A stretch of 64,000 bases of DNA from Escherichia coli. Its GTDB lineage: Bacteria; Pseudomonadota; Gammaproteobacteria; Enterobacterales; Enterobacteriaceae. This document shows, piece after piece, positions 4,944 through 56,050 of this stretch. The stretch is from assembly GCF_009931435.1 (NCBI RefSeq), contig NZ_CP043414.1; one strand, 5' to 3'. Made by a program: the position numbers and the translations under genes. The number at the start of each line of letters is the position of its first letter. Positions within the stretch are counted from its first letter, which is position 1. The notes beneath the pieces are model-generated. The model saw only the letters and a program-made list of their open reading frames with translations, searched no databases and was not told where the DNA came from.

Positions 4944-5489
4944 GTGGACGATTTGACCGCACAAGCCCTGAAAGATTTTACTGCACGCTACTGCGATGCG
5001 TGGCATGAAGAGCATAAAAGCTGGCCGTTAAGTGAGGAACTGTACGGCGTTCCTTCACCGTGCATTATTTCAACCACCGAAGACGCTGTATACTGGCAAC
5101 CCCAGCCGTTTACCGGTGAACAAAATGTAAACGCGGTTGAACGTGCTTTTGATATTGTGATACAACCCACGGTTCATACTTTTTACACGACCCAGTTTGC
5201 CGGGGATATGCACGCGCAGTTTGGCGATATCAAACTGACATTGCTGCAAACCTGGAGTGAAGACGACTTCCGTCGGGTGCAGGAAAATCTGATTGGTCAT
5301 CTGGTGACTCAGAAAAGGCTAAAACTGCCGCCCACGCTATTTATCGCAACGCTGGAAGAAGAGTTAGAGGTCATCTCGGTGTGTAATCTCTCCGGTGAAG
5401 TGTGCAAAGAGACGCTGGGAACACGCAAACGGACGCATTTAGCCTCAAATCTTGCGGAATTCCTTAATCAACTTAAGCCTCTTCTGTAA
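4944..5489 (+). CDS. syd: SecY-interacting protein Syd
   Basis: 181-aa [46 protein letters not shown]...; GTG start at 4944. Confidence 0.9.
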
Positions 5490-5699
5490 TCCAAATACCC
5501 CATCTTGTTGTGAGAGATCTCTTACAGACTCTGTAGGAGATCGCCAGGAAATAAGCGAATACTTAAAAAGATAAGAATCGTTATTTTCATTTAAAATCAA
5601 TATATTGCTTGTTAATTCTTAACTTTCATATGAAATTTTCCTTAAGGCATTGTCTGTAAGCGCCTTGTAAGACTTCGCGAAAAAGACGATTCTATCTTC

Positions 5700-6066
5700 G
5701 TCGACAGGGAGTCAGACAACGAAGTGAACATCAGGATGATGACACTTCTGAAGGACACACCAGGAGGGTGTTTCAGGGAAAGGCTTCTGGATGAAGCGAA
5801 GAGGATGACGCAGGACGCGTTAAAGGACACCTCCAGGATGGAGAATGAGAACCGGTCAGGATGATTCGGTGGGTCAGGAAGGCCAAGGACACTTCAGGAT
5901 GAAGTATCATATCGGGGTGGTGTGAGCAGGAAGCAATAGTTCAGGATGAACGATTGGCCGCAAGGCCAGAGGAAAAGTTGTCAAGGATGAGCAGGGAGCA
6001 ACAAAAGTAGCTGGAATGCTGCGAAACGAACCGGGAGCACTGTGAATACAGTGCTCCCTTTTTTTA
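5700..6066 (+). ncRNA. csrB: CsrB small RNA (CsrA-sequestering)
   Basis: Starts GTCGACAGGGAGTCAGACAACGAAGTGAACATCAGGATGATGAC...; about 18-20 reiterated CAGGA(U/A)G / AGGA motifs across about 360 nt; ends in hairpin GGGAGCACTGTGAATACAGTGCTCCC plus T8 (6031-6066); no long ORF in the region. Confidence 0.93.
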
Positions 6067-6110
6067 TTCCTGCTATCCTTCGCGGCAGTTTTTCTTATTG
6101 AGGTTGCTTT

Positions 6111-6440
6111 ATGACCACTCATGACCGCGTTCGTCTCCAGTTGCAGGCGCTTGAAGCGTTACTGCGTGAACATCAGCACTGGCGAAACGATGAACCCCAG
6201 CCGCATCAATTTAACAGTACCCAACCGTTCTTTATGGACACCATGGAACCACTGGAGTGGTTGCAGTGGGGGCTGATCCCGCGAATGCACGATTTGTTAG
6301 ATAATAACCAGCCATTACCGGGCGCTTTTGCTGTTGCACCCTATTATGAAATGGCGCTGGCGACGGACCATCCGCAACGCGCGCTTATTCTGGCTGAGCT
6401 GGAAAAACTGGATGCTCTTTTTGCGGATGATGCGAGCTGA
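6111..6440 (+). CDS. yqcC: DUF446-family protein YqcC
   Basis: 109-aa ORF MTTHDRVRLQLQALEALLREHQHW...; GAGG RBS at 6100-6103; stop overlaps the truC start. Confidence 0.85.
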   Translation: MTTHDRVRLQLQALEALLREHQHWRNDEPQPHQFNSTQPFFMDTMEPLEWLQWGLIPRMHDLLDNNQPLPGAFAVAPYYEMALATDHPQRALILAELEKLDALFADDAS

Positions 6441-7222
6441 TGCTGGAAATAATCTACCAGGATGAATGGCTGGTTGCGGTAAATAAACCCTCCGGCTGGC
6501 TGGTTCACCGCAGCTGGCTGGATCGCGACGAGAAAGTAGTGGTCATGCAAACCGTGCGTGACCAGATTGGTCAGCATGTATTTACCGCGCATCGGCTGGA
6601 TCGACCGACGTCCGGCGTATTGCTGATGGGACTATCCAGCGAGGCCGGACGGCTGTTGGCACAACAGTTTGAACAGCACCAAATCCAGAAACGTTACCAT
6701 GCGATTGTGCGCGGCTGGCTGATGGAAGAGGCTGTGCTGGATTATCCGCTGGTGGAAGAACTGGACAAAATCGCTGATAAATTCGTCCGCGAAGATAAAG
6801 GTCCACAGCCAGCGGTGACACATTATCGCGGTCTGGCGACCGTAGAAATGCCTGTAGCGACCGGACGTTACCCGACTACGCGCTACGGTCTGGTGGAACT
6901 GGAGCCGAAAACAGGACGCAAGCATCAGCTCCGTCGCCATCTTGCCCACTTGCGCCATCCGATTATTGGCGACAGCAAACATGGTGATTTACGTCAAAAT
7001 CGTAGCGGTGCTGAACATTTTGGCCTTCAGCGGTTAATGCTGCATGCCAGTCAGTTGTCATTGACACATCCTTTTACTGGCGAGCCGTTGACTATTCACG
7101 CGGGCCTGGACGGCACCTGGATGCAGGCGTTATCACAATTTGGCTGGCGGGGTCTGCTTCCTGAAAATGAAAGGGTTGAGTTCAGTGCGCCATCGGGTCA
7201 GGATGGAGAGATAAGTTCCTAA
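6440..7222 (+). CDS. truC: tRNA pseudouridine(65) synthase
   Basis: 260-aa [27 protein letters not shown]... with RluA-family pseudouridine synthase motifs (HRLDRPTSG); start overlaps yqcC stop (TGATG). Confidence 0.92.
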
Positions 7223-7689: not shown

Positions 7690-8108
7690 AAAATTGCCGT
7701 TTTAAGCAAACTGAATCGAATCTTTTCAGGCAAATGCCAGTAAAAACTGCTTCATAGCGCGGATTTTTACTGGCGTTTGCCTGGAGTCAAGCGATCCATT
7801 TCATACTCTTCTTTATTTCTTCGTTTTAATCCTTCCTTTCTTGTTCTTGTTTTCATTTCCGTGAAGTGGATTCCACCGTCCAGGGCTAATGCCAAAATCG
7901 GGCCTCATTGAACGCATTAATGTTGTGTTGTTGCACGGTGAGCCGCTATGGCGCGCTTTTTATACTGCTATTGCCAGATATAAACACGCGCCGTATTCGG
8001 CGAACGACCTATAAAAACGGCAAAAAACACCCTACGTCACCTCTGATTTCCTGGCGATGTCGCAGTCCAGAGTGAGCGTGGCTAACGCGAATTTTCAGGA
8101 GTGCAACA

Positions 8109-9461
8109 ATGAGTTCTTTAAGTCAGGCTGCGAGCAGTGTGGAAAAACGCACGAATGCTCGTTACTGGATAGTGGTGATGTTGTTTATCGTCACATCCTT
8201 CAACTACGGCGACCGCGCTACGCTCTCTATCGCCGGTTCGGAAATGGCCAAAGATATCGGCCTTGATCCTGTGGGAATGGGCTATGTGTTCTCTGCTTTC
8301 TCATGGGCTTATGTTATCGGGCAGATCCCTGGTGGCTGGTTGCTGGACCGTTTTGGTTCAAAACGCGTCTACTTCTGGTCGATCTTTATCTGGTCGATGT
8401 TTACCTTGCTGCAAGGCTTCGTCGATATCTTTAGTGGATTCGGCATTATCGTTGCCCTGTTTACGCTGCGCTTCCTGGTCGGGCTTGCTGAAGCGCCATC
8501 TTTCCCCGGTAACAGTCGCATTGTAGCGGCCTGGTTTCCGGCGCAGGAAAGGGGAACTGCAGTGTCTATTTTTAACTCCGCCCAATACTTCGCAACGGTG
8601 ATCTTCGCGCCGATTATGGGCTGGCTGACTCATGAAGTGGGTTGGTCACATGTCTTCTTCTTCATGGGCGGTCTGGGCATTGTCATCAGCTTTATCTGGT
8701 TGAAAGTCATCCATGAGCCAAATCAACATCCGGGCGTAAATCAGAAAGAGCTGGAGTACATCGCCGCGGGTGGTGCGCTGATCAATATGGATCAGCAAAA
8801 TACCAAAGTTAAAGTGTCGTTCAGCGTGAAGTGGGGGCAGATCAAACAGCTGCTCGGGTCACGGATGATGATCGGCGTTTATATCGGTCAGTACTGTATC
8901 AACGCCCTGACTTACTTCTTCATTACCTGGTTTCCGGTTTATCTGGTGCAGGCACGCGGGATGTCGATTCTGAAAGCGGGCTTTGTGGCTTCCGTACCGG
9001 CGGTTTGCGGTTTTATCGGCGGCGTGTTGGGGGGGATTATTTCAGACTGGCTGATGCGCCGCACAGGTTCGCTGAACATTGCGCGTAAAACACCGATCGT
9101 GATGGGCATGTTGCTATCAATGGTGATGGTGTTCTGTAACTACGTCAACGTTGAGTGGATGATCATCGGCTTTATGGCGCTGGCCTTCTTCGGTAAGGGC
9201 ATTGGGGCGCTGGGTTGGGCAGTAATGGCAGATACCGCGCCAAAAGAGATCAGCGGTCTTTCCGGTGGCCTGTTCAATATGTTTGGTAACATTTCCGGTA
9301 TCGTCACGCCAATCGCAATTGGTTATATCGTTGGCACGACTGGCTCCTTTAATGGGGCGCTGATTTATGTTGGTGTTCATGCCCTAATCGCGGTACTGAG
9401 CTACCTGGTGCTGGTGGGCGATATCAAGCGTATCGAGCTGAAACCTGTCGCGGGGCAATAA
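8109..9461 (+). CDS. gudP: glucarate/galactarate MFS transporter
   Basis: 450-aa [27 protein letters not shown]..., 12-TM MFS profile; CAGGAG RBS at 8096-8101. Confidence 0.92.
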
Positions 9462-9462
9462 G

Positions 9463-10803
9463 ATGACGACACAATCCAGTCCTGTTATTACTGATATGAA
9501 GGTTATTCCGGTCGCCGGGCACGACAGCATGTTGCTTAATATTGGTGGTGCACATAACGCATATTTCACCCGCAATATTGTGGTACTCACCGATAACGCC
9601 GGGCATACCGGTATTGGTGAAGCGCCCGGCGGAGAGGTGATTTATCAAACACTGGTCGATGCTATTCCGATGGTGCTGGGCCAGGAGATCGCACGACTGA
9701 ATAAAGTGGTTCAGCAGGTGCATAAAGGTAATCAGGCAGCCGATTTTGATACCTTCGGCAAAGGTGCCTGGACTTTTGAATTGCGCGTTAATGCCGTGGC
9801 GGCGCTGGAAGCTGCCTTGCTTGACCTGCTAGGTAAGGCGCTGAATGTTCCGGTCTGCGAACTGTTAGGGCCAGGCAAGCAACGCGATGCTATTACTGTC
9901 CTTGGTTATCTGTTTTATATCGGTGATCGGACCAAAACCGATCTTCCTTATCTGGAAAATACGCCGGGCAACCATGAGTGGTATCAATTGCGGCATCAGA
10001 AAGCGATGAACAGCGAAGCCGTTGTGCGTCTGGCGGAAGCTTCACAGGATCGCTATGGCTTTAAAGATTTCAAACTTAAGGGCGGAGTGTTACCTGGCGA
10101 GCAAGAAATCGACACTGTTCGTGCATTGAAGAAACGCTTCCCGGATGCGCGAATTACCGTTGATCCCAACGGTGCATGGCTGCTTGATGAAGCCATTTCT
10201 CTGTGCAAAGGGCTGAATGATGTTCTCACCTATGCCGAAGACCCGTGCGGCGCTGAGCAGGGTTTCTCCGGACGTGAAGTGATGGCGGAGTTTCGACGGG
10301 CGACCGGCTTGCCCGTCGCGACTAACATGATCGCCACCAACTGGCGCGAAATGGGCCATGCGGTGATGCTCAATGCGGTAGATATTCCACTTGCCGATCC
10401 GCATTTCTGGACGCTTTCCGGTGCAGTCCGCGTGGCGCAACTTTGCGACGACTGGGGGCTGACCTGGGGCTGCCATTCTAATAACCACTTTGATATCTCT
10501 CTGGCGATGTTTACCCATGTGGGCGCGGCGGCACCGGGTAATCCTACCGCTATCGATACCCACTGGATTTGGCAGGAGGGCGATTGTCGTCTGACCAAAA
10601 ATCCGCTGGAGATTAAAAACGGAAAAATTGCCGTTCCTGATGCGCCCGGTCTGGGCGTGGAACTGGACTGGGAACAGGTACAAAAGGCACATGAGGCCTA
10701 TAAACGTCTGCCTGGCGGTGCGCGTAACGACGCAGGCCCGATGCAATACCTGATCCCCGGCTGGACCTTTGACCGTAAACGTCCCGTTTTCGGCCGTCAT
10801 TGA
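9463..10803 (+). CDS. gudX: glucarate dehydratase-related protein (enolase superfamily paralogue)
   Basis: 446-aa [34 protein letters not shown]...; tandem paralogue of the following gudD. Confidence 0.9.
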
Positions 10804-12164: not shown

Positions 12165-12199
12165 GACAGAAAACCAAAACCGGCTCTGTCAGGAGCCGG

Positions 12200-12335
12200 G
12201 TTGAGTCTGATGCCAAACGCAAAATTGCTTGTTGCGCTACGTATCAGGCCTACATTATTTTTTTAATTCATTGAATTTAATTGGTGTTTATGCCGGATAA
12301 GGCGTTAACGCCGCATCCGGCATAAACACAGGCAC
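12200..12335. repeat. REP/BIME-like palindromic units in the convergent gudD-barA intergenic region
   Basis: GCGCTACGTATCAGGCCTACA and the imperfect palindrome GCCGGATAAGGCGTTAACGCCGCATCCGGC match the REP consensus style. Confidence 0.6.
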
Positions 12336-12395
12336 CTTGTCACCAGTCTGAAACCAGCGTTATAAAAAGCCGATTGCTACTCGACAAGACGTCCA

Positions 12396-15152
12396 TTACC
12401 CAAGAATTTTGCTGGCTTCGCGCGCCACATTATCCATCTCGTCCAGCAGTTCCAGAAGCTCTGGCTCCAAATCTTCTTCTTTAGTACCGCTGCGTAGCTG
12501 TTGTTCGATCAGTTGGCAGAGATTCTTCATACGCGGCACACCGCTATAGCCGCAACTGCCATGCAGTTTATGAATCAAATCAACCAGGCCTTCCGGGTTT
12601 TCTCCAACCAGCTGTTCCTCAACTTTGTTGCGAACTTCAGGCAGGAAATCGAGTAACATTTGCAGCATATCGCGCGCTAAATCGGTTTTTCCTGCTGCCT
12701 GGCGTAGTGCCAGTTGCCAGTCGAGGGTCGCATTCGGGTTCACCACAATTTCATTGAATTCGGGGGTCACGACGCGAGAGGAAATACCGCTGCCAGGCTT
12801 GTAGCGCAACAGCAAATTATGCAATCGTTCTTCTTCAATCGGTTTCGCCAGATAATCGCTCATCCCTGCGCCAAGCAGCTTCTCTTTTTGCCCGGCCATT
12901 GCATGCGCCGTTACCGCGATAACCGGCGTTTGTTGCTGATGGGGGAGCTGGTGGATGAGTTCGCAGGCCCGAATACCGTCCATGTCCGGCATTTGAATAT
13001 CCATTAAGATCAAATCGAACGGCATCTGTTTCGCCCGTTCAACCGCCTGATGCCCGCTATCGCAAAGTTCCACATGTTGCACCATATCTTCCAGCAATGC
13101 GCCGATAAGTTTCAGGTTAGCGGGGTTGTCATCAACCGCCATGACTGTCATTGCCAGCTTACTTTCATCGGTTACAGGCAAAAGCGTGTTTTGTTTGTGA
13201 TGACAAAATTCCGTCAGGGCAGGGAACAGGCGCGTAGGTGTTAATGGTTTCAGCAGACACGCGCCGATACCATCTTGCTTAAGTTTTTCAGCATTGACTT
13301 GTGCATGGCAAGGAAGTGCCAGCATCAGAAAATCGGTCATCGATACCGCTTTCGCTAATCGCTCATGTTGCATTGTTAGCGGCTCGCGGAAGGTCACCGC
13401 AATGCCTAATAACATCATGTCGTAATGCGCGGGAGGCAGCGCGGAGAACGTTGGGCTATAAACCACTTCCAGCGGCGTTTCACTTAAAATATCCAGCGTG
13501 CATTGCGCTGCTGCGGAGTTTGGTTCGACATAGGCCAGGCGCTTGCCGGCGAGGCACTGGGTGGATGGCCCTTCGATAATAATGTTCGGATTCAGATCGA
13601 GATTAATGTGGAACCAGAAAGTTGAACCGCGATTCGGCTGGCTATGGAACGAAATATCGCCGCCCATTTCATTAACCAGTTTCTGTGTGATCACCAGCCC
13701 CAGCCCGGTGCCACCATGACGGCGGGAAATACTGGCATCAGCCTGTCGGAAGGCCTGGAATAAGCGCGATTGATCGCGTTCAGGAATACCAATGCCGGTA
13801 TCCCGAATCTGCACTTCAATCTGCACTTTGGTATTACTCAGCGCACGTTTTTCTACCAGAATATCAATGTTGCCATTCTCGGTGAATTTAATTGCATTCC
13901 CTACCAGGTTAGTGATGATTTGCTGTAATCGCAGTGGGTCGCCAATTACGTTATCGGGCACGTCGCTCTTAATATTGAGCGTCAGTTCCAGCCCTTTATC
14001 GTGAGAAGAATGTGCCAGCAGGGTAACGACTTCATCCAGCGTGCTGCGTAGTGGGAATGGAATACTTTCCAGAATCAGCTTACCTGCTTCCAGTTTCGAG
14101 AAGTCGAGAACATCATTAATAATTGCCAGCAAATTATTTGCCGAACGTTCAATCGTATTCAGGTGATCGCGCTGCGTTGGTGTTAATTCTGTTTTCAGCG
14201 TCAGGCGGGTAAAGCCAATAACACCATTCAGTGGTGTACGCAGCTCGTGTGACATATTTGCCAGAAACTCGGATTTAATACGCGCCGCTTCCTGGGCGCG
14301 CTTTTTCGCCAGATCCAACTCAACGTTCTGAATTTCCATCTGCTCCAGCGTTTCACGCAGATCGGACGTCGCCTGGTCGATATTGTGCTGCATCTCTTCG
14401 TGATAAGCTGCCAGCGACATTGCCATCGAGTTGATGCCATTTTTCAGCATATCCAGCTCGCCGAGCATAAATCCTTCCACTCGGCTGTCGAGTTGTCCGC
14501 GACGGATACGGTCGACGGTATTCACCATGTTGCGAATTGGACCGGTTACATCACGCATGAGTCGCCAGCCAAAAATAAGCGCAATACCGATACAAAACAG
14601 CATCATCACGCTGGAAATAAAGATCTCTTTATATTGCTGCAAGCGAACCGATTTAAGATCCAGCTCAAGCGCAATATATCCCAACATATTTTGACTATTT
14701 TTGGCATCGCTACTGGGCGATTCGTCGGGGGAGTAACTCTCAGAAATAATCGGCGTGCGGAGGATCATAATATCGCCGTCACGAGTGACAGTGAGCTGGC
14801 GAGGAAACGGCACGTTGCTGCCGAGCTGCATTGATGAGGGATCAAGATGAAAATTGGAGGTGACAAAGAGTCGGTTATTTTCATCATAAACCGAAATCGC
14901 GCGAACAATATCGGAATGGCGACGATGCAGTACGCTTATTAACTGACCGATAGATTCGCGATTTTGCAGGCTCATGCCATATTCAGTAGAAACTGCAAGC
15001 GGCTCAATAATGCTGGCTCCGGCATCTTCCAGTTGACGCTGCAAGTCGTTATAGCGATGCACGACGAAAAAGATACTCAGCAATAAACCAATAAGGACGG
15101 TCGGTGCCAGGATCAGAATCATCATGCGTGCGCGCAGGCTGTAGTTGGTCAT
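12396..15152 (-). CDS. barA: hybrid sensor histidine kinase BarA (BarA/UvrY two-component system)
   Basis: 918-aa [27 protein letters not shown]... with HAMP, HisKA (SHELRTPLN), ATPase, receiver ([14 protein letters not shown]) and HPt domains. Confidence 0.95.
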
Positions 15153-28395: not shown

Positions 28396-29218
28396 GAGTT
28401 CCCCGCGCCAGCGGGGATAAACCGGCGGTAAAATTGTTGCTACCGTCTGGCCCTTGCGAGTTCCCCGCGCCAGCGGGGATAAACCGACGGTGCAGGATCT
28501 GTAATTCTTGCTCGCGATGAGTTCCCCGCGCCAGCGGGGATAAACCGAGTTATCAGGATTATTCCCGCTCCGCCGCCAGGAGTTCCCCGCGCCAGCGGGG
28601 ATAAACCGTCGTTTTTGTGGTGGGAGTGTGCGGATTGGTAGAGTTCCCCGCGCCAGCGGGGATAAACCGGCTGACATTGTCAGCTATAACCTTACAATGT
28701 GGAGTTCCCCGCGCCAGCGGGGATAAACCGACGTCCCGCTATTTCCTGGACAGTGTGTAGCGGAGTTCCCCGCGCCAGCGGGGATAAACCGGCGGCGCTA
28801 ACGTGATAATCACGATCAATTATGAGTTCCCCGCGCCAGCGGGGATAAACCGCGGGCGTTAACCTTTTTATAGGCATCTTCCTTGAGTTCCCCGCGCCAG
28901 CGGGGATAAACCGGCTTGCAGCAGCTGCGCCAACATCTGAATACGGAGTTCCCCGCGCCAGCGGGGATAAACCGCTTTTTCCCGTGACAAGATCCAGTTA
29001 ACTGTTGAGTTCCCCGCGCCAGCGGGGATAAACCGCATCACTGGACGCCCATTTGAATAACTCACAGGAGTTCCCCGCGCCAGCGGGGATAAACCGATTC
29101 AGCAAATAGCGAATTTCATAAATATGATGTGTTCCCCGCGCCAGCGGGGATAAACCGTACGTTAAACGCCATCTGTCATGGGTCGTCATGTGTTCCCCGC
29201 GCCAGCGGGGATAAACCA
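28396..29218 (+). CRISPR. type I-E CRISPR array: 14 repeats, 13 spacers (32-33 bp)
   Basis: 29-bp repeat GAGTTCCCCGCGCCAGCGGGGATAAACCG at 28396, 28458, 28519, 28580, 28641, 28702, 28763, 28824, 28885, 28946, 29007, 29068; last two repeats (29129, 29190) are GTGTT variants and the final one ends ...AAACCA. Confidence 0.97.
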
Positions 29219-43135: not shown

Positions 43136-44847
43136 TGAACGAAAAACATCCAGGGCCTTTAGTGGTCGAAGGAAAACTGACAGACGCCGAGCGCATGAAG
43201 CTTGAGAGCAACTACCTGCGCGGGACCATTGCGGAAGATTTAAACGACGGTCTGACCGGCGGCTTTAAGGGCGACAACTTCCTGCTGATCCGTTTCCACG
43301 GTATGTATCAGCAGGATGACCGCGATATCCGCGCCGAACGTGCTGAACAGAAGCTGGAACCGCGTCATGCGATGCTGCTGCGCTGCCGTCTGCCGGGTGG
43401 GGTGATCACCACTAAACAGTGGCAGGCAATTGATAAATTCGCCGGTGAAAACACCATTTATGGCAGCATTCGCCTGACCAACCGCCAGACGTTCCAGTTC
43501 CACGGCATTCTGAAAAAGAACGTCAAACCGGTGCACCAGATGCTGCACTCGGTCGGTCTTGATGCGCTGGCGACCGCCAACGACATGAACCGTAATGTAC
43601 TCTGCACCTCGAACCCATTTGAATCTCAGTTGCACGCGGAAGCGTATGAGTGGGCGAAGAAAATCTCTGAACATCTGCTGCCGCGAACCCGCGCCTATGC
43701 GGAGATCTGGCTCGATCAGGAGAAAGTCGCCACTACTGACGAAGAACCGATCCTCGGTCAGACCTATCTGCCGCGTAAATTCAAAACCACGGTAGTGATC
43801 CCGCCGCAGAACGATATCGATCTGCACGCCAACGACATGAACTTTGTGGCGATCGCGGAAAACGGCAAGCTGGTGGGCTTCAACCTGCTGGTGGGCGGTG
43901 GGCTTTCTATCGAACACGGCAACAAGAAAACCTACGCCCGCACGGCGAGTGAGTTTGGTTATCTGCCGCTGGAGCATACGCTGGCGGTGGCGGAAGCCGT
44001 CGTGACAACTCAGCGCGACTGGGGTAACCGAACCGATCGTAAAAATGCCAAAACCAAATACACGCTGGAGCGCGTGGGGGTCGAGACGTTTAAAGCAGAA
44101 GTGGAACGTCGCGCGGGGATCAAATTTGAGCCGATCCGTCCATATGAATTTACCGGGCGCGGCGATCGTATCGGCTGGGTAAAAGGGATCGACGACAAAT
44201 GGCACCTGACGCTGTTTATCGAAAATGGCCGAATTCTTGATTATCCGGGGCGTCCGCTGAAAACCGGCCTGCTGGAGATCGCGAAGATCCACAAAGGTGA
44301 TTTCCGCATTACGGCGAACCAGAATCTGATCATCGCTGGTGTACCGGAAAGCGAGAAAGCGAAGATTGAGAAGATCGCCAAAGAGAGCGGATTGATGAAT
44401 GCCGTCACGCCGCAGCGCGAAAACTCAATGGCCTGCGTGTCATTCCCGACTTGCCCGTTGGCGATGGCGGAAGCGGAGCGTTTCCTGCCGTCGTTTATCG
44501 ATAACATCGATAATTTAATGGCGAAACATGGTGTCAGCGATGAGCACATCGTGATGCGTGTAACAGGCTGCCCGAACGGTTGTGGTCGCGCGATGCTGGC
44601 GGAAGTTGGCCTGGTGGGTAAAGCGCCGGGTCGCTACAACCTGCATCTTGGTGGCAACCGCATTGGGACACGTATCCCACGGATGCATAAAGAAAACATC
44701 ACCGAGCCGGAAATCCTGGCGACGCTTGATGAACTGATAGGGCGCTGGGCGAAAGAACGTGAAGCGGGTGAAGGCTTCGGCGACTTTACGGTGCGTGCGG
44801 GCATCATTCGCCCGGTGCTCGATCCGGCGCGTGATTTGTGGGATTAA
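43135..44847 (+). CDS. cysI: sulfite reductase hemoprotein beta subunit
   Basis: 570-aa [45 protein letters not shown]... Confidence 0.96.
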
Positions 44848-44860
44848 CCATCAGTCCAGT

Positions 44861-44903
44861 CTTGTAGGCCTGATAAGACGCGTAAGCGTCGCATCAGGCA
44901 AGG
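44861..44903. repeat. REP palindromic unit between cysI and cysH
   Basis: CTTGTAGGCCTGATAAGACGCGTAAGCGTCGCATCAGGCAAGG. Confidence 0.7.
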
Positions 44904-44920
44904 CAAACAGTGAGGAATCT

Positions 44921-45655
44921 ATGTCCAAACTCGATCTAAATGCCCTGAACGAACTGCCGAAGGTAGATCGCATTCTGGCGCTGGCGGAAACTAACGCCGA
45001 GCTTGAAAAACTGGATGCTGAAGGCCGTGTTGCCTGGGCGCTGGATAATCTGCCCGGTGAATATGTGCTTTCTTCCAGCTTCGGTATCCAGGCGGCGGTT
45101 AGTCTGCATCTGGTGAATCAGATTCGCCCGGATATTCCGGTGATCCTCACCGATACCGGTTATCTGTTTCCGGAAACCTACCGCTTTATTGACGAGTTAA
45201 CGGACAAACTCAAGCTCAACCTGAAAGTGTACCGCGCTACCGAAAGCGCCGCCTGGCAGGAAGCACGCTACGGCAAACTGTGGGAGCAGGGCGTTGAAGG
45301 CATTGAAAAGTACAACGATATCAACAAAGTCGAACCGATGAACCGGGCGCTGAAAGAACTGAACGCACAAACGTGGTTTGCTGGCCTGCGCCGTGAACAA
45401 TCCGGCAGCCGCGCTAATTTACCGGTGTTGGCAATTCAGCGTGGCGTATTTAAAGTGCTGCCGATTATCGACTGGGATAACCGAACTATTTATCAGTATC
45501 TGCAAAAACATGGCCTGAAATATCACCCATTATGGGACGAAGGATATTTATCGGTTGGTGATACCCATACAACCCGTAAATGGGAACCTGGTATGGCGGA
45601 AGAAGAAACGCGTTTCTTTGGCTTAAAAAGGGAATGTGGGCTGCACGAAGGGTAA
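44921..45655 (+). CDS. cysH: phosphoadenosine phosphosulfate (PAPS) reductase
   Basis: ORF track starts 44759; the ATG at 44921 with GAGGAA RBS gives [57 protein letters not shown]..., 244 aa. Confidence 0.95.
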
Positions 45656-45712: not shown

Positions 45713-45918
45713 CGAGCCGCATTCCGGCATTTAAACATGAATATAGCAGGGGAAATCAACAGTTATAGAATGGCGTCGGGTGCTTGAGGCTGTCTGGCGT
45801 TGAGCATTCGCGAGGTTCCAGATGGACAAAAGCCCCGGGCGATATTTCTATCAACCTGAGGCTCGCGTTCGAACGTAGCAATTCGAATGTTAGTCTCTTC
45901 TTTGCAGGGAGGCAAGAC

Positions 45919-46071
45919 ATGCTGACAAAATATGCCCTTGTGGCAATCATCGTACTGTGTTGTACAGTACTGGGATTCACGCTGATGGTAGGCGACTCGT
46001 TGTGTGAGTTGAGTATCAGAGAACGTGGTATGGAGTTTAAGGCAGTTCTCGCTTACGAACCGAAGAAGTAG
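45919..46071 (+). CDS. Hok/Gef-family type I toxin (hok-like; position corresponds to the K-12 sokX locus)
   Basis: 50-aa [53 protein letters not shown] with GGGAGG RBS; N-terminal TM helix, conserved SLCE and AYE motifs; upstream GCTTGAGGCT element typical of hok mRNA 5' ends. Confidence 0.7.
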
Positions 46072-46309: not shown

Positions 46310-48967
46310 GTGACTTTCTTTGATTTCTGGGGAAAAACCCGACGTGGCGAGAAAGAGGGTGGCGACGATTATCACCTTCTTTGCTGGCATTCGCTGGATG
46401 TAGCCGCGATAGGCTATTTAATGGTCAAAAACAACTGTTTCGGGCTGGCTGACTATTTTCGTCAATTAGGTTTCGCTGACACGGATCAGGCAGCACAATT
46501 TTTCGCCTGGTTGTTGTGCTGGCACGATACTGGAAAATTTGCCCGCTCATTTCAGCAACTTTACCTGCACCCACAACTCAAGGTTCCGGAAGGCGCAAGA
46601 AAGAATTACGAAAAGATCTCTCATTCAACGCTGGGTTACTGGTTGTGGCATCATTATTTAATTGAATGTGAAGAGTTGCTTCCTTCATCTTCACTCTCTT
46701 TGCGCAAACTTAAACGAGTAATAGATATGTGGATGCCCGTGACGACCGGGCATCATGGTCGGCCTCCTGACCGTATCGATGAACTGGACAACTTTCTGCC
46801 TGAAGACAAAGCTGCCGCACGGGATTTTCTCCTTGAAATCAAGGTACTGTTTCCGCTCATCGAGATCCCTACATTCTGGGATGATGACGAGGGCGTTGAA
46901 CTTATAAAACATTTTTCCTGGTATATCTCTGCAACCGTCGTACTCGCAGACTGGACGGGATCGTCAACGCGGTTTTTTCCACGCGTTGCACAGGCAATGG
47001 ATATTAAAGATTACTGGCAGAAGGCTTTAGTTCAGGCTCAAAACGCATTAACCGTCTTTCCCCCAAAAGCAGAAAGCGCGCCTTTCACTGGAATTAATAC
47101 GCTGTTTCCTTTTATTGAGAACCCAACACCGTTACAGCAAAAGGTGTTGGATCTGGATATCAGCCAGCCAGGACCACAGTTGTTTATTCTGGAAGATGTG
47201 ACTGGCGCAGGTAAAACAGAAGCGGCGCTTATCCTGGCGCACAGGTTGATGTCTGCGGGGAAAGCACAGGGTTTGTTTTTTGGCCTGCCAACAATGGCAA
47301 CGGCCAATGCCATGTACGATAGGCTGGTAAAAACCTGGCTTGCTTTCTATTCGCCACAATCCCGCCCCAGCCTGGTGCTGGCACACAGCGCTCGTTCGCT
47401 AATGGATCGCTTTAACGCATCGCTGTGGTCTGGTGATTTTGTGGGGTCAGAAGAACCGGATGAACAAGCGTTCAGTCAGGGATGTGCGGCCTGGTTTGCT
47501 GACAGTAACAAGAAGGCGTTGCTGGCTGAAATTGGCGTCGGCACGCTGGATCAGGCGATGATGGCGGTGATGCCGTTCAAACATAATAATCTGCGGCTTC
47601 TGGGGCTGAGTAACAAAATCCTGCTAGCCGATGAGATCCACGCCTGTGACGCTTATATGTCGTGCATTCTTGAAGGGCTGATCGAGCGGCAGGCGCGTGG
47701 CGGAAACAGCGTTATTTTGCTTTCTGCTACGTTGTCTCAACAGCAGCGTGACAAACTCGTCGCCGCCTTTGCGCGTGGTGCAGAGGGCCAGCAAGAAGCT
47801 CCGTTGCTGGAAAAAGATGATTATCCCTGGCTGACGCATGTCACGAAATCCGATGTGCATTCGCACCGGGTAGCGACGCGCAAAGACGTTGAGCGCAGCG
47901 TGAGTGTGGGTTGGCTTCATAGCGAACAAGAGTGTATTGCGCGTATCGAATCGGCGGTAAGTCAGGGGAAATGCATCGCCTGGATTCGGAATTCTGTCGA
48001 TGACGCCATCCAGGTTCATCGTCAGCTGCTTGCCCGCGGCGTCATTCCTGCTTCCAGCCTTTCACTTTTTCATAGCCGCTTTGCTTTCAGCGATCGCCAG
48101 CGAATTGAAACGGAGACGCTGGCACGCTTTGGTAAAGAAGACTGTTCACAGCGTGCCGGAAAAGTCCTCATTTGTACTCAGGTCCTGGAGCAGAGCGTCG
48201 ACTGCGACCTGGACGAAATGATTTCCGACCTTGCCCCTGTTGATTTACTGATCCAGCGAGCAGGGCGATTACAGCGACATATCCGCGATATTAATGGTCA
48301 GTTAAAGCGTGACGGTAAAGACGAGCGTCACCCTCCTGTATTGCTGATTCTGGCCCCCGTCTGGAACGACTCTCCGGGTGAAGAATGGTTTGGCTGTGCC
48401 ATGCGTAACAGTGCATTTGTCTATCCCGATCATGGGCGAATCTGGTTGACGCAGCGTGTGCTGCGTGAACAAGGCGCGATTCAGATGCCACACTCAGCCC
48501 GGCTTCTGATTGAATCAGTCTACGGTGAGGACGTGGTAATGCCGGAAGGGTTTGCCCGCAGCGAGCAGGAGCAAGTGGGCAAATACTACTGCGATCGTTC
48601 AATGGCTAATAAGTTTGTGCTGAACTTCAGGCCCGGCTATGCCGCCAATATCAACGATTACCTCCCGGAAAAACTGTCGACACGTCTGGCTGAAGAGTCT
48701 GTTTCCCTGTGGCTGGCTAGCTGTATTGGCGGTGTGGTGAAGCCTTATGCCACCGGTGCACACGCATGGGAAATGAGCGTTGTCAGAGTGCGCCAAAGCT
48801 GGTGGAAAAAACATCGGGATAAGTTTTCTTTACTGGAAGGGGATGCGTTCAGGCAGTGGTGCGTTGAACAGCGGCAAGATCCGGAGATGGCAAACGTGAT
48901 TTTGGTCACCGATGACGAAAGTTGTGGATATTCGGCTACGGAGGGATTGATTGGCAAGGTTGGTTGA
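46310..48967 (+). CDS. cas3: Cas3 HD-nuclease/helicase (type I-E)
   Basis: 885-aa ORF (GTG start, AAGGA RBS); HD motif ...LLCWHDTGKF..., Walker A VTGAGKTEA, DEIH box LLADEIHACD, then helicase C-terminal region. Confidence 0.93.
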   Translation: MTFFDFWGKTRRGEKEGGDDYHLLCWHSLDVAAIGYLMVKNNCFGLADYFRQLGFADTDQAAQFFAWLLCWHDTGKFARSFQQLYLHPQLKVPEGARKNYEKISHSTLGYWLWHHYLIECEELLPSSSLSLRKLKRVIDMWMPVTTGHHGRPPDRIDELDNFLPEDKAAARDFLLEIKVLFPLIEIPTFWDDDEGVELIKHFSWYISATVVLADWTGSSTRFFPRVAQAMDIKDYWQKALVQAQNALTVFPPKAESAPFTGINTLFPFIENPTPLQQKVLDLDISQPGPQLFILEDVTGAGKTEAALILAHRLMSAGKAQGLFFGLPTMATANAMYDRLVKTWLAFYSPQSRPSLVLAHSARSLMDRFNASLWSGDFVGSEEPDEQAFSQGCAAWFADSNKKALLAEIGVGTLDQAMMAVMPFKHNNLRLLGLSNKILLADEIHACDAYMSCILEGLIERQARGGNSVILLSATLSQQQRDKLVAAFARGAEGQQEAPLLEKDDYPWLTHVTKSDVHSHRVATRKDVERSVSVGWLHSEQECIARIESAVSQGKCIAWIRNSVDDAIQVHRQLLARGVIPASSLSLFHSRFAFSDRQRIETETLARFGKEDCSQRAGKVLICTQVLEQSVDCDLDEMISDLAPVDLLIQRAGRLQRHIRDINGQLKRDGKDERHPPVLLILAPVWNDSPGEEWFGCAMRNSAFVYPDHGRIWLTQRVLREQGAIQMPHSARLLIESVYGEDVVMPEGFARSEQEQVGKYYCDRSMANKFVLNFRPGYAANINDYLPEKLSTRLAEESVSLWLASCIGGVVKPYATGAHAWEMSVVRVRQSWWKKHRDKFSLLEGDAFRQWCVEQRQDPEMANVILVTDDESCGYSATEGLIGKVG

Positions 48968-49063
48968 TATGCCTGCGACAGGATTCTCTGAATAGTTGAT
49001 ACACAAAAAAGGATGGAAGGATGGATAACCGACCTGGGATGGTCTTTTTACGAGAGGATGCGT

Positions 49064-50626
49064 ATGAACTCGTTTTCACTTCTGACAACCCCGTGGTTGC
49101 CCGTTCGTTATAAAGACGGAACGACAGGCAAACTGGCGCCAGTCGATCTGGCGGATGAAAATGTTGTCGATATCGCTGCGCCGCGGGCAGATCTCCAGGG
49201 TGCGGCATGGCAGTTTTTGCTGGGACTACTACAAACCAGCTTCGCGCCCAAAAATCACGGTCGTTGGGATGATATATGGGAAGACGGACTGGAAGCTGAA
49301 AAGCTAAGGGAAGCATTGCTGTCTTTAGAACATGCTTTCCAGTTTGGCCCAGATTCCCCTTCATTTATGCAGGATTTCGAGGCGCTTACGGGAGATAAAG
49401 TTCCTGTCGCTTCGTTACTGCCTGAAATTCCCGGCGCTCAAACAACGAAGTTCAATAAAGACCACTTTATTAAGCGTGGCGTGACTGAACACATATGCCC
49501 TCATTGTTCCGCGTTAGCGCTGTTTTCCCTACAGTTAAATGCGCCGTCAGGCGGCAAAGGCTATCGCACCGGTTTGCGCGGCGGTGGGCCAATGACGACG
49601 CTGATTGAATTACAGGAATATCAGGGCAATCAACAAACACCCTTGTGGCGCAAACTGTGGCTCAACGTGATGCCGCAGGATGAATCTGACTTACCGCTAC
49701 CCAAAAAATTTGGCGATCTGGTTTTCCCCTGGCTTGGCCCGACGCGTACCAGTGAACTGGCCGGTGCGGTGGTAACTGATGATCAGGTCAACAAACTCCA
49801 GGCGTACTGGGGAATGCCTCGGCGCATACGTGTTGATTTTAATACCACGACAGTCGGCAACTGCGATATTTGCGGTGAGCAGAGCGACGCGCTCCTGAGC
49901 CTGATGACGACCAAAAATTACGGTGCGAATTATGCCATGTGGCAGCATCCCTTAACGCCCTACCGTATACCACTTAAAGAGGGCGGCGAGCTTTACTCGG
50001 TTAAACCACAACCGGGCGGTTTAATCTGGCGCGACTGGCTAGGACTTATCGAAACGGGTAAGTCAGAAAACAATACGGAACTTCCCGCGCTGGTGGTGAA
50101 ACTCTTTAATGCCAGCAGTCTGAAACAGGCAAAAGTGGGCCTGTGGGGATTTGGCTATGATTTCGACAACATGAAAGCGCGCTGTTGGTACGAACACCAT
50201 TTCCCGCTACTGCTCAATAAAAAAGAAGGCCAGATACCAAAGCTGCGGCTGGCTGCGCAAACGGCTTCACGGATTCTAAGTCTGTTACGGAGTGCATTGA
50301 AAGAAGCATGGTTCTCCGATCCAAAAGGTGCACGGGGTGATTTCAGTTTTGTGGATATCGACTTCTGGAACAAAACTCAGCATCGCTTCCTGAGGTTAGT
50401 GCGTCAAATTGAAGAAGGTCAGGAGCCGGATGAATTACTCAGCAAATGGCAAAAGGAAATGTGGTTATTCGCGCGTCAGGATTTTGACGAGCGGGTATTC
50501 ACTAATCCTTATGAGCCCGTTGATTTGAAACGCGTCATGACCGCGCGCAAGAAATATTTTACAACATCGGCGGAGAAGCAAAGTGCTAAAGCCGCCAGGG
50601 AGAAAAAGCAGGAGGCTGCTGAATGA
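49064..50626 (+). CDS. casA: Cse1/CasA, Cascade large subunit
   Basis: ORF track starts 49013; the ATG at 49064 has a GAGAGG RBS and gives MNSFSLLTTPWLPVRYKDGTTGK..., a Cse1-family N-terminus; about 520 aa. Confidence 0.85.
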   Translation: MNSFSLLTTPWLPVRYKDGTTGKLAPVDLADENVVDIAAPRADLQGAAWQFLLGLLQTSFAPKNHGRWDDIWEDGLEAEKLREALLSLEHAFQFGPDSPSFMQDFEALTGDKVPVASLLPEIPGAQTTKFNKDHFIKRGVTEHICPHCSALALFSLQLNAPSGGKGYRTGLRGGGPMTTLIELQEYQGNQQTPLWRKLWLNVMPQDESDLPLPKKFGDLVFPWLGPTRTSELAGAVVTDDQVNKLQAYWGMPRRIRVDFNTTTVGNCDICGEQSDALLSLMTTKNYGANYAMWQHPLTPYRIPLKEGGELYSVKPQPGGLIWRDWLGLIETGKSENNTELPALVVKLFNASSLKQAKVGLWGFGYDFDNMKARCWYEHHFPLLLNKKEGQIPKLRLAAQTASRILSLLRSALKEAWFSDPKGARGDFSFVDIDFWNKTQHRFLRLVRQIEEGQEPDELLSKWQKEMWLFARQDFDERVFTNPYEPVDLKRVMTARKKYFTTSAEKQSAKAAREKKQEAAE

Positions 50627-54924: not shown

Positions 54925-56050
54925 GTGTTCCCCGCGCCAGCGGGGATAAACCGTGGATTATGACGCCAGAGAGCTTCCTGTTTGCGTGTTCCCCGCGCCA
55001 GCGGGGATAAACCGCTGGCTAATAACATCCCACTGAATATTATTTCGTGTTCCCCGCGCCAGCGGGGATAAACCGAGGTGTGGCATGCGGGGAATTATGA
55101 TCCGGTAGTGTTCCCCGCGCCAGCGGGGATAAACCGTGACAACGGCCGGCCGCTCTTTTTGCGGTCATGTGTTCCCCGCGCCAGCGGGGATAAACCGATC
55201 ATCGGCATCATCTCGTGATACTCATCCGGCGTGTTCCCCGCGCCAGCGGGGATAAACCGCCCAGGCTTTACGTGAGCTGGCGGATGTGGCCGTGTTCCCC
55301 GCGCCAGCGGGGATAAACCATACGGTCAAGCGATATCAGGGGTACTGTGTCGTGTTCCCCGCGCCAGCGGGGATAAACCGGGCGCCGCATCTTTATCGTA
55401 AAGCATGTAAAGGTGTTCCCCGCGCCAGCGGGGATAAACCGACCGCTCACACCCAGACAAGCGCCACTAACGTGTGTTCCCCGCGCCAGCGGGGATAAAC
55501 CGAACGCCGCATCAGCTAAATACGCTAAAAAAATGTGTTCCCCGCGCCAGCGGGGATAAACCGCGGCTGATACTCAGGAGCAGGCCAGAGAGCGTGTGTT
55601 CCCCGCGCCAGCGGGGATAAACCGTACCACCTGTGTATTGAGTTACGTCGCCGGGGGTGTTCCCCGCGCCAGCGGGGATAAACCGGAGCTTCATCGGTGG
55701 TTCTGGGAGCAACGGGAGTGTTCCCCGCGCCAGCGGGGATAAACCGGCACAAGTGACTACATCAAGGATGGGGAATGGGTGTTCCCCGCGCCAGCGGGGA
55801 TAAACCGATTAACATTGCAATTGAATTGACGCGTATGAGGTGTTCCCCGCGCCAGCGGGGATAAACCGCAGGCAGCACGGCGGGTTTTGCCCGGATATTT
55901 GTGTTCCCCGCGCCAGCGGGGATAAACCGCAAAACCAATAGGTGCTTTCCACATTGCAGAAGTGTTCCCCGCGCCAGCGGGGATAAACCGCTCTCGGTTC
56001 TGGGGTACTGTTACCCATAACTGAGCTCCCCCGCGTCAGCGGGGGAACTC
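54925..56050 (+). CRISPR. type I-E CRISPR array: 19 repeats (18 canonical plus degenerate terminal), 18 spacers
   Basis: 29-bp repeat GTGTTCCCCGCGCCAGCGGGGATAAACCG at 54925, 54986, 55047, 55108, 55169, 55231, 55292, 55352, 55413, 55474, 55535, 55596, 55657, 55718, 55779, 55840, 55901, 55962; terminal degenerate GAGCTCCCCCGCGTCAGCGGGGGAACTC (56023-56050); spacers 31-33 bp. Confidence 0.97.

Follow-up and report, generated by a model that had tools for sequence, protein, structure and literature searches.

Sequence-based assignment of a GGA-rich non-coding locus between syd and yqcC to the csrB gene of Escherichia coli

A GGA-rich interval that begins at position 5700 of a 64,000-nucleotide stretch of DNA (the whole stretch analyzed, hereafter the window) raises the question of whether it is the gene for CsrB, the RNA that antagonises CsrA, and whether the copy is intact. 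A preliminary description had named positions 5700 to 6066 csrB from a density of CAGGATG-like motifs, the lack of an open reading frame and a strong terminator at the end, and had placed the gene for the BarA kinase about 6 kb away. The identification was borne out by the match to Rfam family RF00018, 98.6% identity to K-12, synteny, the UvrY repeat upstream and covariation in the hairpins. From this sequence evidence, a probability of roughly 0.98 is given to window 5700-6068 (+) being the csrB gene on the chromosome of an Escherichia coli-type genome. Coordinates of the features are collected in Table 1.

Table 1. Features of the csrB locus and its surroundings, in window coordinates.
Feature	Position	Strand	Description
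syd	4944..5489	+	NF003439 (SecY-interacting protein), 285.9 bits; annotated syd in E. coli records; upstream flank
UvrY-P binding site	5509..5526		inverted repeat TGTGAGAGATCTCTTACA (18 nt); centre at -183/-182 relative to the TSS (5700)
TGTAGGAGA extra element	5532..5540	+	partially conserved; follows the inverted repeat by 5 bp; matched alongside it
IHF consensus match AATCAATATATTG	5595..5607	+	pattern WATCAANNNNTTR; ~-105 to -93
Likely core promoter	5665..5693	+	-35 TTGTAA (5665-5670), 17-bp spacer, -10 GATTCT (5688-5693)
csrB	5700..6068	+	369-nt non-coding RNA, CsrA-sequestering by K-12 analogy; RF00018 match and K-12 identity
Mechanical ORF, 46 aa	5724..5864	+	overlaps csrB
Mechanical ORF, 45 aa		-	overlaps csrB
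Mechanical ORF, 62 aa		-	overlaps csrB
Mechanical ORF, 71 aa	5907..6122	-	overlaps csrB
Single-stranded AAACGAACC	6024..6032	+	directly 5' of the terminator; unpaired in the predicted fold
Intrinsic terminator	6033..6065	+	stem-loop 6033-6058 (11 bp, 7 G-C, 4-nt loop), T7 at 6059-6065
yqcC (DUF446)	6111..6440	+	PF04287, 114 bits; downstream flank, synteny anchor
truC	6440..7222		after yqcC; NF008321, 496 bits
barA	12396..15152	-	918-aa ORF; sensor kinase; outside the csrB transcription unit

The motif density noticed at the outset was confirmed by counting. The exact heptamer CAGGATG occurs five times in 5700-6068 and 16 times in the remaining ~127.6 kb (both strands), a 108-fold enrichment (Poisson P ~2e-9). 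The shorter AGGA was found 15 times (15.7-fold enriched, P ~2e-13) and GGA 22 times (4.5-fold enriched). The antisense of the interval contains no AGGA and two GGA, and the enrichment is therefore strand-specific. For AGGA density per 369 nt on either strand of the window, csrB ranked first with 15, versus 7 for the next best segment. Second in GGA density was a segment at ~48786-49154 (+), with 17 per 369 nt versus 22 in csrB; the density scan revealed no matching AGGA excess and Rfam no match in that segment, and its GGA content probably reflects coding-sequence composition.

The predicted fold of the csrB RNA had a minimum free energy (MFE) of -117.7 kcal/mol, with a z-score of -4.07 against dinucleotide shuffles. 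Hairpin loops contained half of the 22 GGA (11) and unpaired linkers another 7, leaving 2 partly paired and 2 fully paired, one of the latter within the terminator stem of the MFE fold. The mean unpaired probability was at least 0.76 for 18 of the 22. The trait of the CsrB/RsmB family, namely many GGA that are mostly exposed in loops or linkers, is accordingly present in the predicted fold.

The Rfam search that had been proposed as a check on the identification returned a full-length match to CsrB (RF00018) at window 5709-6068 (+), with 379.8 bits (E 1.9e-110), five times the gathering score of 71. The match spans model positions 1-356 of 356 and is not truncated. Alignment with csrB of K-12 (b4408; NC_000913.3 2924156-2924524, minus) was gapless over the same 369 nt, of which 364 were identical (98.6%). 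On account of this gapless alignment the 5' end was set at 5700 and the K-12-equivalent 3' end at 6068, such that the start given in the preliminary description coincides with the annotated 5' end of K-12 and its end at 6066 is moved to 6068. The gene lies between syd and yqcC-truC, the position that it holds in K-12, and the two copies also agree in the flanking syd, yqcC and truC and in UvrY repeat, promoter region and terminator.

A 661-nt query around csrB was compared with complete E. coli genomes and was matched in 5425 of 5426. The best match was 99.8% identical, with one difference in the 661 bases compared, and 455 genomes were at least 99% identical over the query; the csrB allele is therefore not private to one strain. 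In the closest genome, that of strain 2017-02-2CC (L001, NZ_AP027764.1), csrB occupies 10251-10619. The yqcC and truC genes are annotated in the records of both K-12 and this strain. The automated RefSeq/PGAP annotation of the latter is shown without a csrB feature between syd and yqcC, though K-12 has the ncRNA there; this is an annotation gap and not evidence of absence.

The upstream control region was examined for the elements known from E. coli. The inverted repeat TGTGAGAGATCTCTTACA has a single exact match in the window, against an expectation of 0 from shuffles, and equals in both sequence and position the UvrY site of E. coli csrB established by Zere et al. through a DNase I footprint with phosphorylated UvrY and ChIP-exo (PMC4682653). 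Of the 24 other Enterobacterales loci, 21 have a TGTRAG-N6-CTYACR box 179-204 nt upstream of csrB; the strict regular expression missed the remaining three (L027, L012 and L038), and L012 has only ~220 nt of upstream sequence. The extra element next to the repeat has been described for csrB of E. coli and Salmonella (PMC4682653). Optimal UvrY binding and csrB expression also need a putative IHF site located between the UvrY site and the promoter (PMC4682653), and the location of the IHF consensus match in the window suggests that it is this same site.

The promoter hexamers listed in Table 1 were read by eye from the sequence and agree with the consensus at 7 of 12 positions. A sigma-70 consensus scan of 5300-6300 at a threshold of 9/12 found no site because the core promoter is weak (7/12). 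Such a weak promoter would be consistent with an activator-dependent gene rather than evidence against one, and the core promoter region is identical to that of K-12.

At the 3' end, the strong terminator that had been claimed was found in the form of an 11-bp stem followed by T7. Across genera, compensatory changes were present at 4 of 10 pairs of this stem, with 96% of cells paired. The AAACGAAC(C) stretch that precedes it is almost invariant; over 27 homologues, 7 of the 9 positions at 6024-6032 never vary and an eighth reaches at least 90% conservation. According to a review, CsrD-dependent decay of CsrB starts with RNase E cleavage at an unstructured site before the terminator (PMC7652899). 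Positions 6024-6032 are the probable RNase E entry site for this decay, the exact bases of which we infer.

A side observation concerns the same region in other strains. At least eight E. coli genomes carry an IS200/IS605-family element (~709 bp, with tnpA) within the U-tract of the csrB terminator. In E. coli E200086 (L003, NZ_CM128605.1) the element lies at ~915-1623, and its junction joins CAGTGCTCCCTTTTT to GTGCACAG, so that csrB there retains the stem and five T's. Insertions of this kind could alter how the 3' end of CsrB forms or affect read-through to yqcC. The csrB of the window lacks the insertion.

Relative to K-12, the RNA of the window contains five substitutions. These change CAGGA of K-12 to AAGGA (5751), CAGGAUG in a loop to CAGGAGG (5766), GGGA to AGGA (5886), a base outside any motif (5910), and G to A at 6039, where a G.U pair of the terminator stem becomes A-U and the stem is stronger. 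A further four differences occur in 210 nt upstream, at 5506, 5601, 5604 and 5608; of these, 5601 and 5604 correspond to N positions of the IHF pattern and 5608 lies just outside the IHF core. All nine differences leave the GGA cores, the UvrY repeat and the core promoter untouched and are allelic variation within the species. It is improbable that the allele of this lineage differs functionally from that of K-12; if it did, the substitutions at 5751, 5766, 5886 and 6039 together could measurably affect the capacity to bind CsrA or the stability of the RNA, thereby shifting the Csr set-point in the E. coli lineage of the window.

The same five RNA and four upstream positions are what would speak for a csrB relic, a copy whose expression or function was lost in the strain of the window, but every GGA survives the substitutions, and the terminator stem gains strength from the one at 6039. 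With the UvrY repeat, IHF core, promoter and terminator all intact, and with the closest genome differing at 1 of 661 bases and 455 E. coli genomes at least 99% identical, such a loss is very unlikely. The copy is an intact, normal csrB allele at its usual chromosomal place, and the gene is already known.

A different Csr/Rsm sponge, either a CsrC paralogue or an RNA of the RsmX/Y/Z type, would likewise possess hairpins with GGA and be under UvrY/GacA control. Rfam also groups CsrB with these other sponges in a single clan (CL00106) for which only the best family is reported. The clan-best family here was nevertheless CsrB, over the whole model. Furthermore, the near-identity to K-12 csrB is accompanied by the csrB-specific position between syd and yqcC, and the repeat is the perfect csrB version rather than the weaker csrC version (PMC4682653). 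Sequence identity, synteny and the clan-best match thus refute this explanation, to which almost no probability is given. No second match to the CsrB clan was found by the Rfam scan of the window.

Homologues were collected with the conserved 3' word TCANGGATGAGCAGGGAGCA, a pattern of 19 specified bases, which was scanned against a single genome of each species. The scan yielded at least 120 loci and, among the matches listed, nearly all belonged to the Enterobacterales. All 24 Enterobacterales loci tested were full-length CsrB by Rfam (195-380 bits). The order syd-csrB-yqcC-truC was present in 23 of these 24 other loci, the remaining one being without upstream sequence. Pattern matches in Algoriphagus, Anaerolineae, Obscuribacterales and Desulfovibrio were dropped as chance matches because Rfam found no CsrB at any of the four; a fifth match to the 19-base pattern outside the Enterobacterales was in an Acidobacteria MAG.

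Covariation was assessed by projecting the Rfam consensus structure, which is the family model and not independent of prior family knowledge, onto a structure-blind MAFFT alignment of 27 sequences. Standard pairs occupied 89.3% of alignment cells, versus 37-54% when partners were slid by 1-3 columns, and compensatory (both-side) changes were detected at 30 of 54 pairs, as opposed to 10-18 with slid partners. Covariation scored 0.264, compared with at most 0.084 for the controls, and none of 500 shuffles reached the observed value. The homologues retain 19-30 GGA though their identity to the window drops to ~60%.

The statement that the interval has no ORF held in substance and not to the letter. 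Four mechanical ORFs of 45-71 aa overlap csrB, but a Pfam scan gave no match for any of them at E up to 0.1, and no ORF was conserved in position or length across 26 homologues. In nearly every homologue the longest ORF lies elsewhere, has another length and is in another frame, and of the 260 indel events counted between pairs, 229 had lengths not divisible by 3. Coding is therefore excluded by sequence comparison, since the longest ORF varies between genera and most indels break the frame, and the interval is read as non-coding. The idea that it encodes one or more small proteins, for instance from 5724-5864 (+) or 5907-6122 (-), with the GGA as a coding by-product, has the mechanical ORFs in its favor and next to no probability, given that no ORF is conserved and that substitutions in the RNA stems are compensatory.

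The barA gene was recovered at exactly the coordinates in the preliminary description, on the minus strand and 6.3 kb from the 3' end of csrB. Residues 1-917 of the 918 in its product matched the BarA equivalog NF008318 of NCBIfam with 1623 bits (cut-off 890). The relative position of barA is shared with K-12 and strain 2017-02-2CC. Going by the K-12 map, uvrY, csrA, csrC and csrD are expected to lie outside the window. The spacer between gudD and barA is ~231 bp in the window (12165-12395) and in K-12, and 57 bp in strain 2017-02-2CC (16731-16787 of L001), which suggests a small insertion or deletion, possibly of a REP-type element.

Two further observations were made elsewhere in the window. 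A chromosomal hok/sok-type toxin-antitoxin locus is located at 45778-45934 (+), directly downstream of an ORF at 44759-45655, and matches Rfam sok (RF01794) with 103.2 bits (gathering score 59). A frame overlapping sok, within 45784-46071 (+), ends in a 50-aa peptide; from the translations, the peptide is presumably Hok-like and the ORF at 44759-45655 presumably cysH-like. Two CRISPR arrays are present at 28458-28915 and 54925-55929, with repeats GAGTTCCCCGCGCCAGCGGGGATAAACCG / GTGTTCCCC... at a 61-bp period, which we take to be of the E. coli I-E type.

BarA is known to phosphorylate UvrY and to act through it (PMC4682653), and CsrB of K-12 binds multiple CsrA dimers and antagonises CsrA in vivo (PMC7652899). 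CsrB turnover depends on RNase E, PNPase and CsrD, with unphosphorylated EIIA-Glc as the trigger (PMC7652899, PMC4682653). Following the K-12 literature (PMC7652899, PMC4682653), BarA encoded 6.3 kb away on the opposite strand would phosphorylate UvrY, and UvrY-P on the upstream repeat, aided by IHF-induced bending, would activate csrB transcription. The many high-affinity GGA sites of CsrB would capture CsrA dimers and titrate the protein off its mRNA targets, which would relieve both the translational repression and the activation mediated by CsrA. Removal of CsrB would begin with RNase E cleavage in the single-stranded stretch before the terminator, gated by CsrD and EIIA-Glc. For the allele of the window, CsrA sequestration is expected by analogy with the 98.6% identical K-12 RNA, for which it is known; transcription under BarA-UvrY is likewise presumed from K-12, and the cis elements and barA are intact.

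CsrB is among the best-characterised bacterial regulatory RNAs, and the present copy has no discovery value. Its practical use is that of a positive control, in which an ncRNA gene, its boundaries and its regulator were recognised from raw sequence.

Compared with the wider CsrB/RsmB family (RF00018), the locus shares the GGA hairpins, the synteny and the UvrY box, as well as the invariant 3' module UCANGGAUGAGCAGGGAGCA ... AAACGAAC ... terminator. In Enterobacillus tribolii DSM 103736 (L077, 7700-9499, minus), three tandem full-length csrB copies lie between syd and yqcC, at 7700-8078, 8311-8690 and 8922-9299, and score 232-239 bits each. Each copy has its own UvrY-box 18-mer ~180-190 nt upstream (8260, 8871 and 9482), and the whole transcription unit has therefore been triplicated, with a period of ~611 bp. 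Duplication of csrB is described in Vibrio (PMC6262261).

In the homologues from Pantoea, Erwinia and Mixta, the middle part of the RNA is shorter by ~50 nt. CsrC and RsmX/Y/Z are shorter than CsrB and have fewer sites. CsrC of E. coli and RsmX/Y/Z of Pseudomonas follow the same principle of multiple GGA sites, and are controlled by BarA-UvrY or GacS-GacA via an upstream palindrome (PMC4682653, PMC7652899). They are other genes at other loci, whereas the RNA of the window is assigned to csrB by both its sequence and its position.
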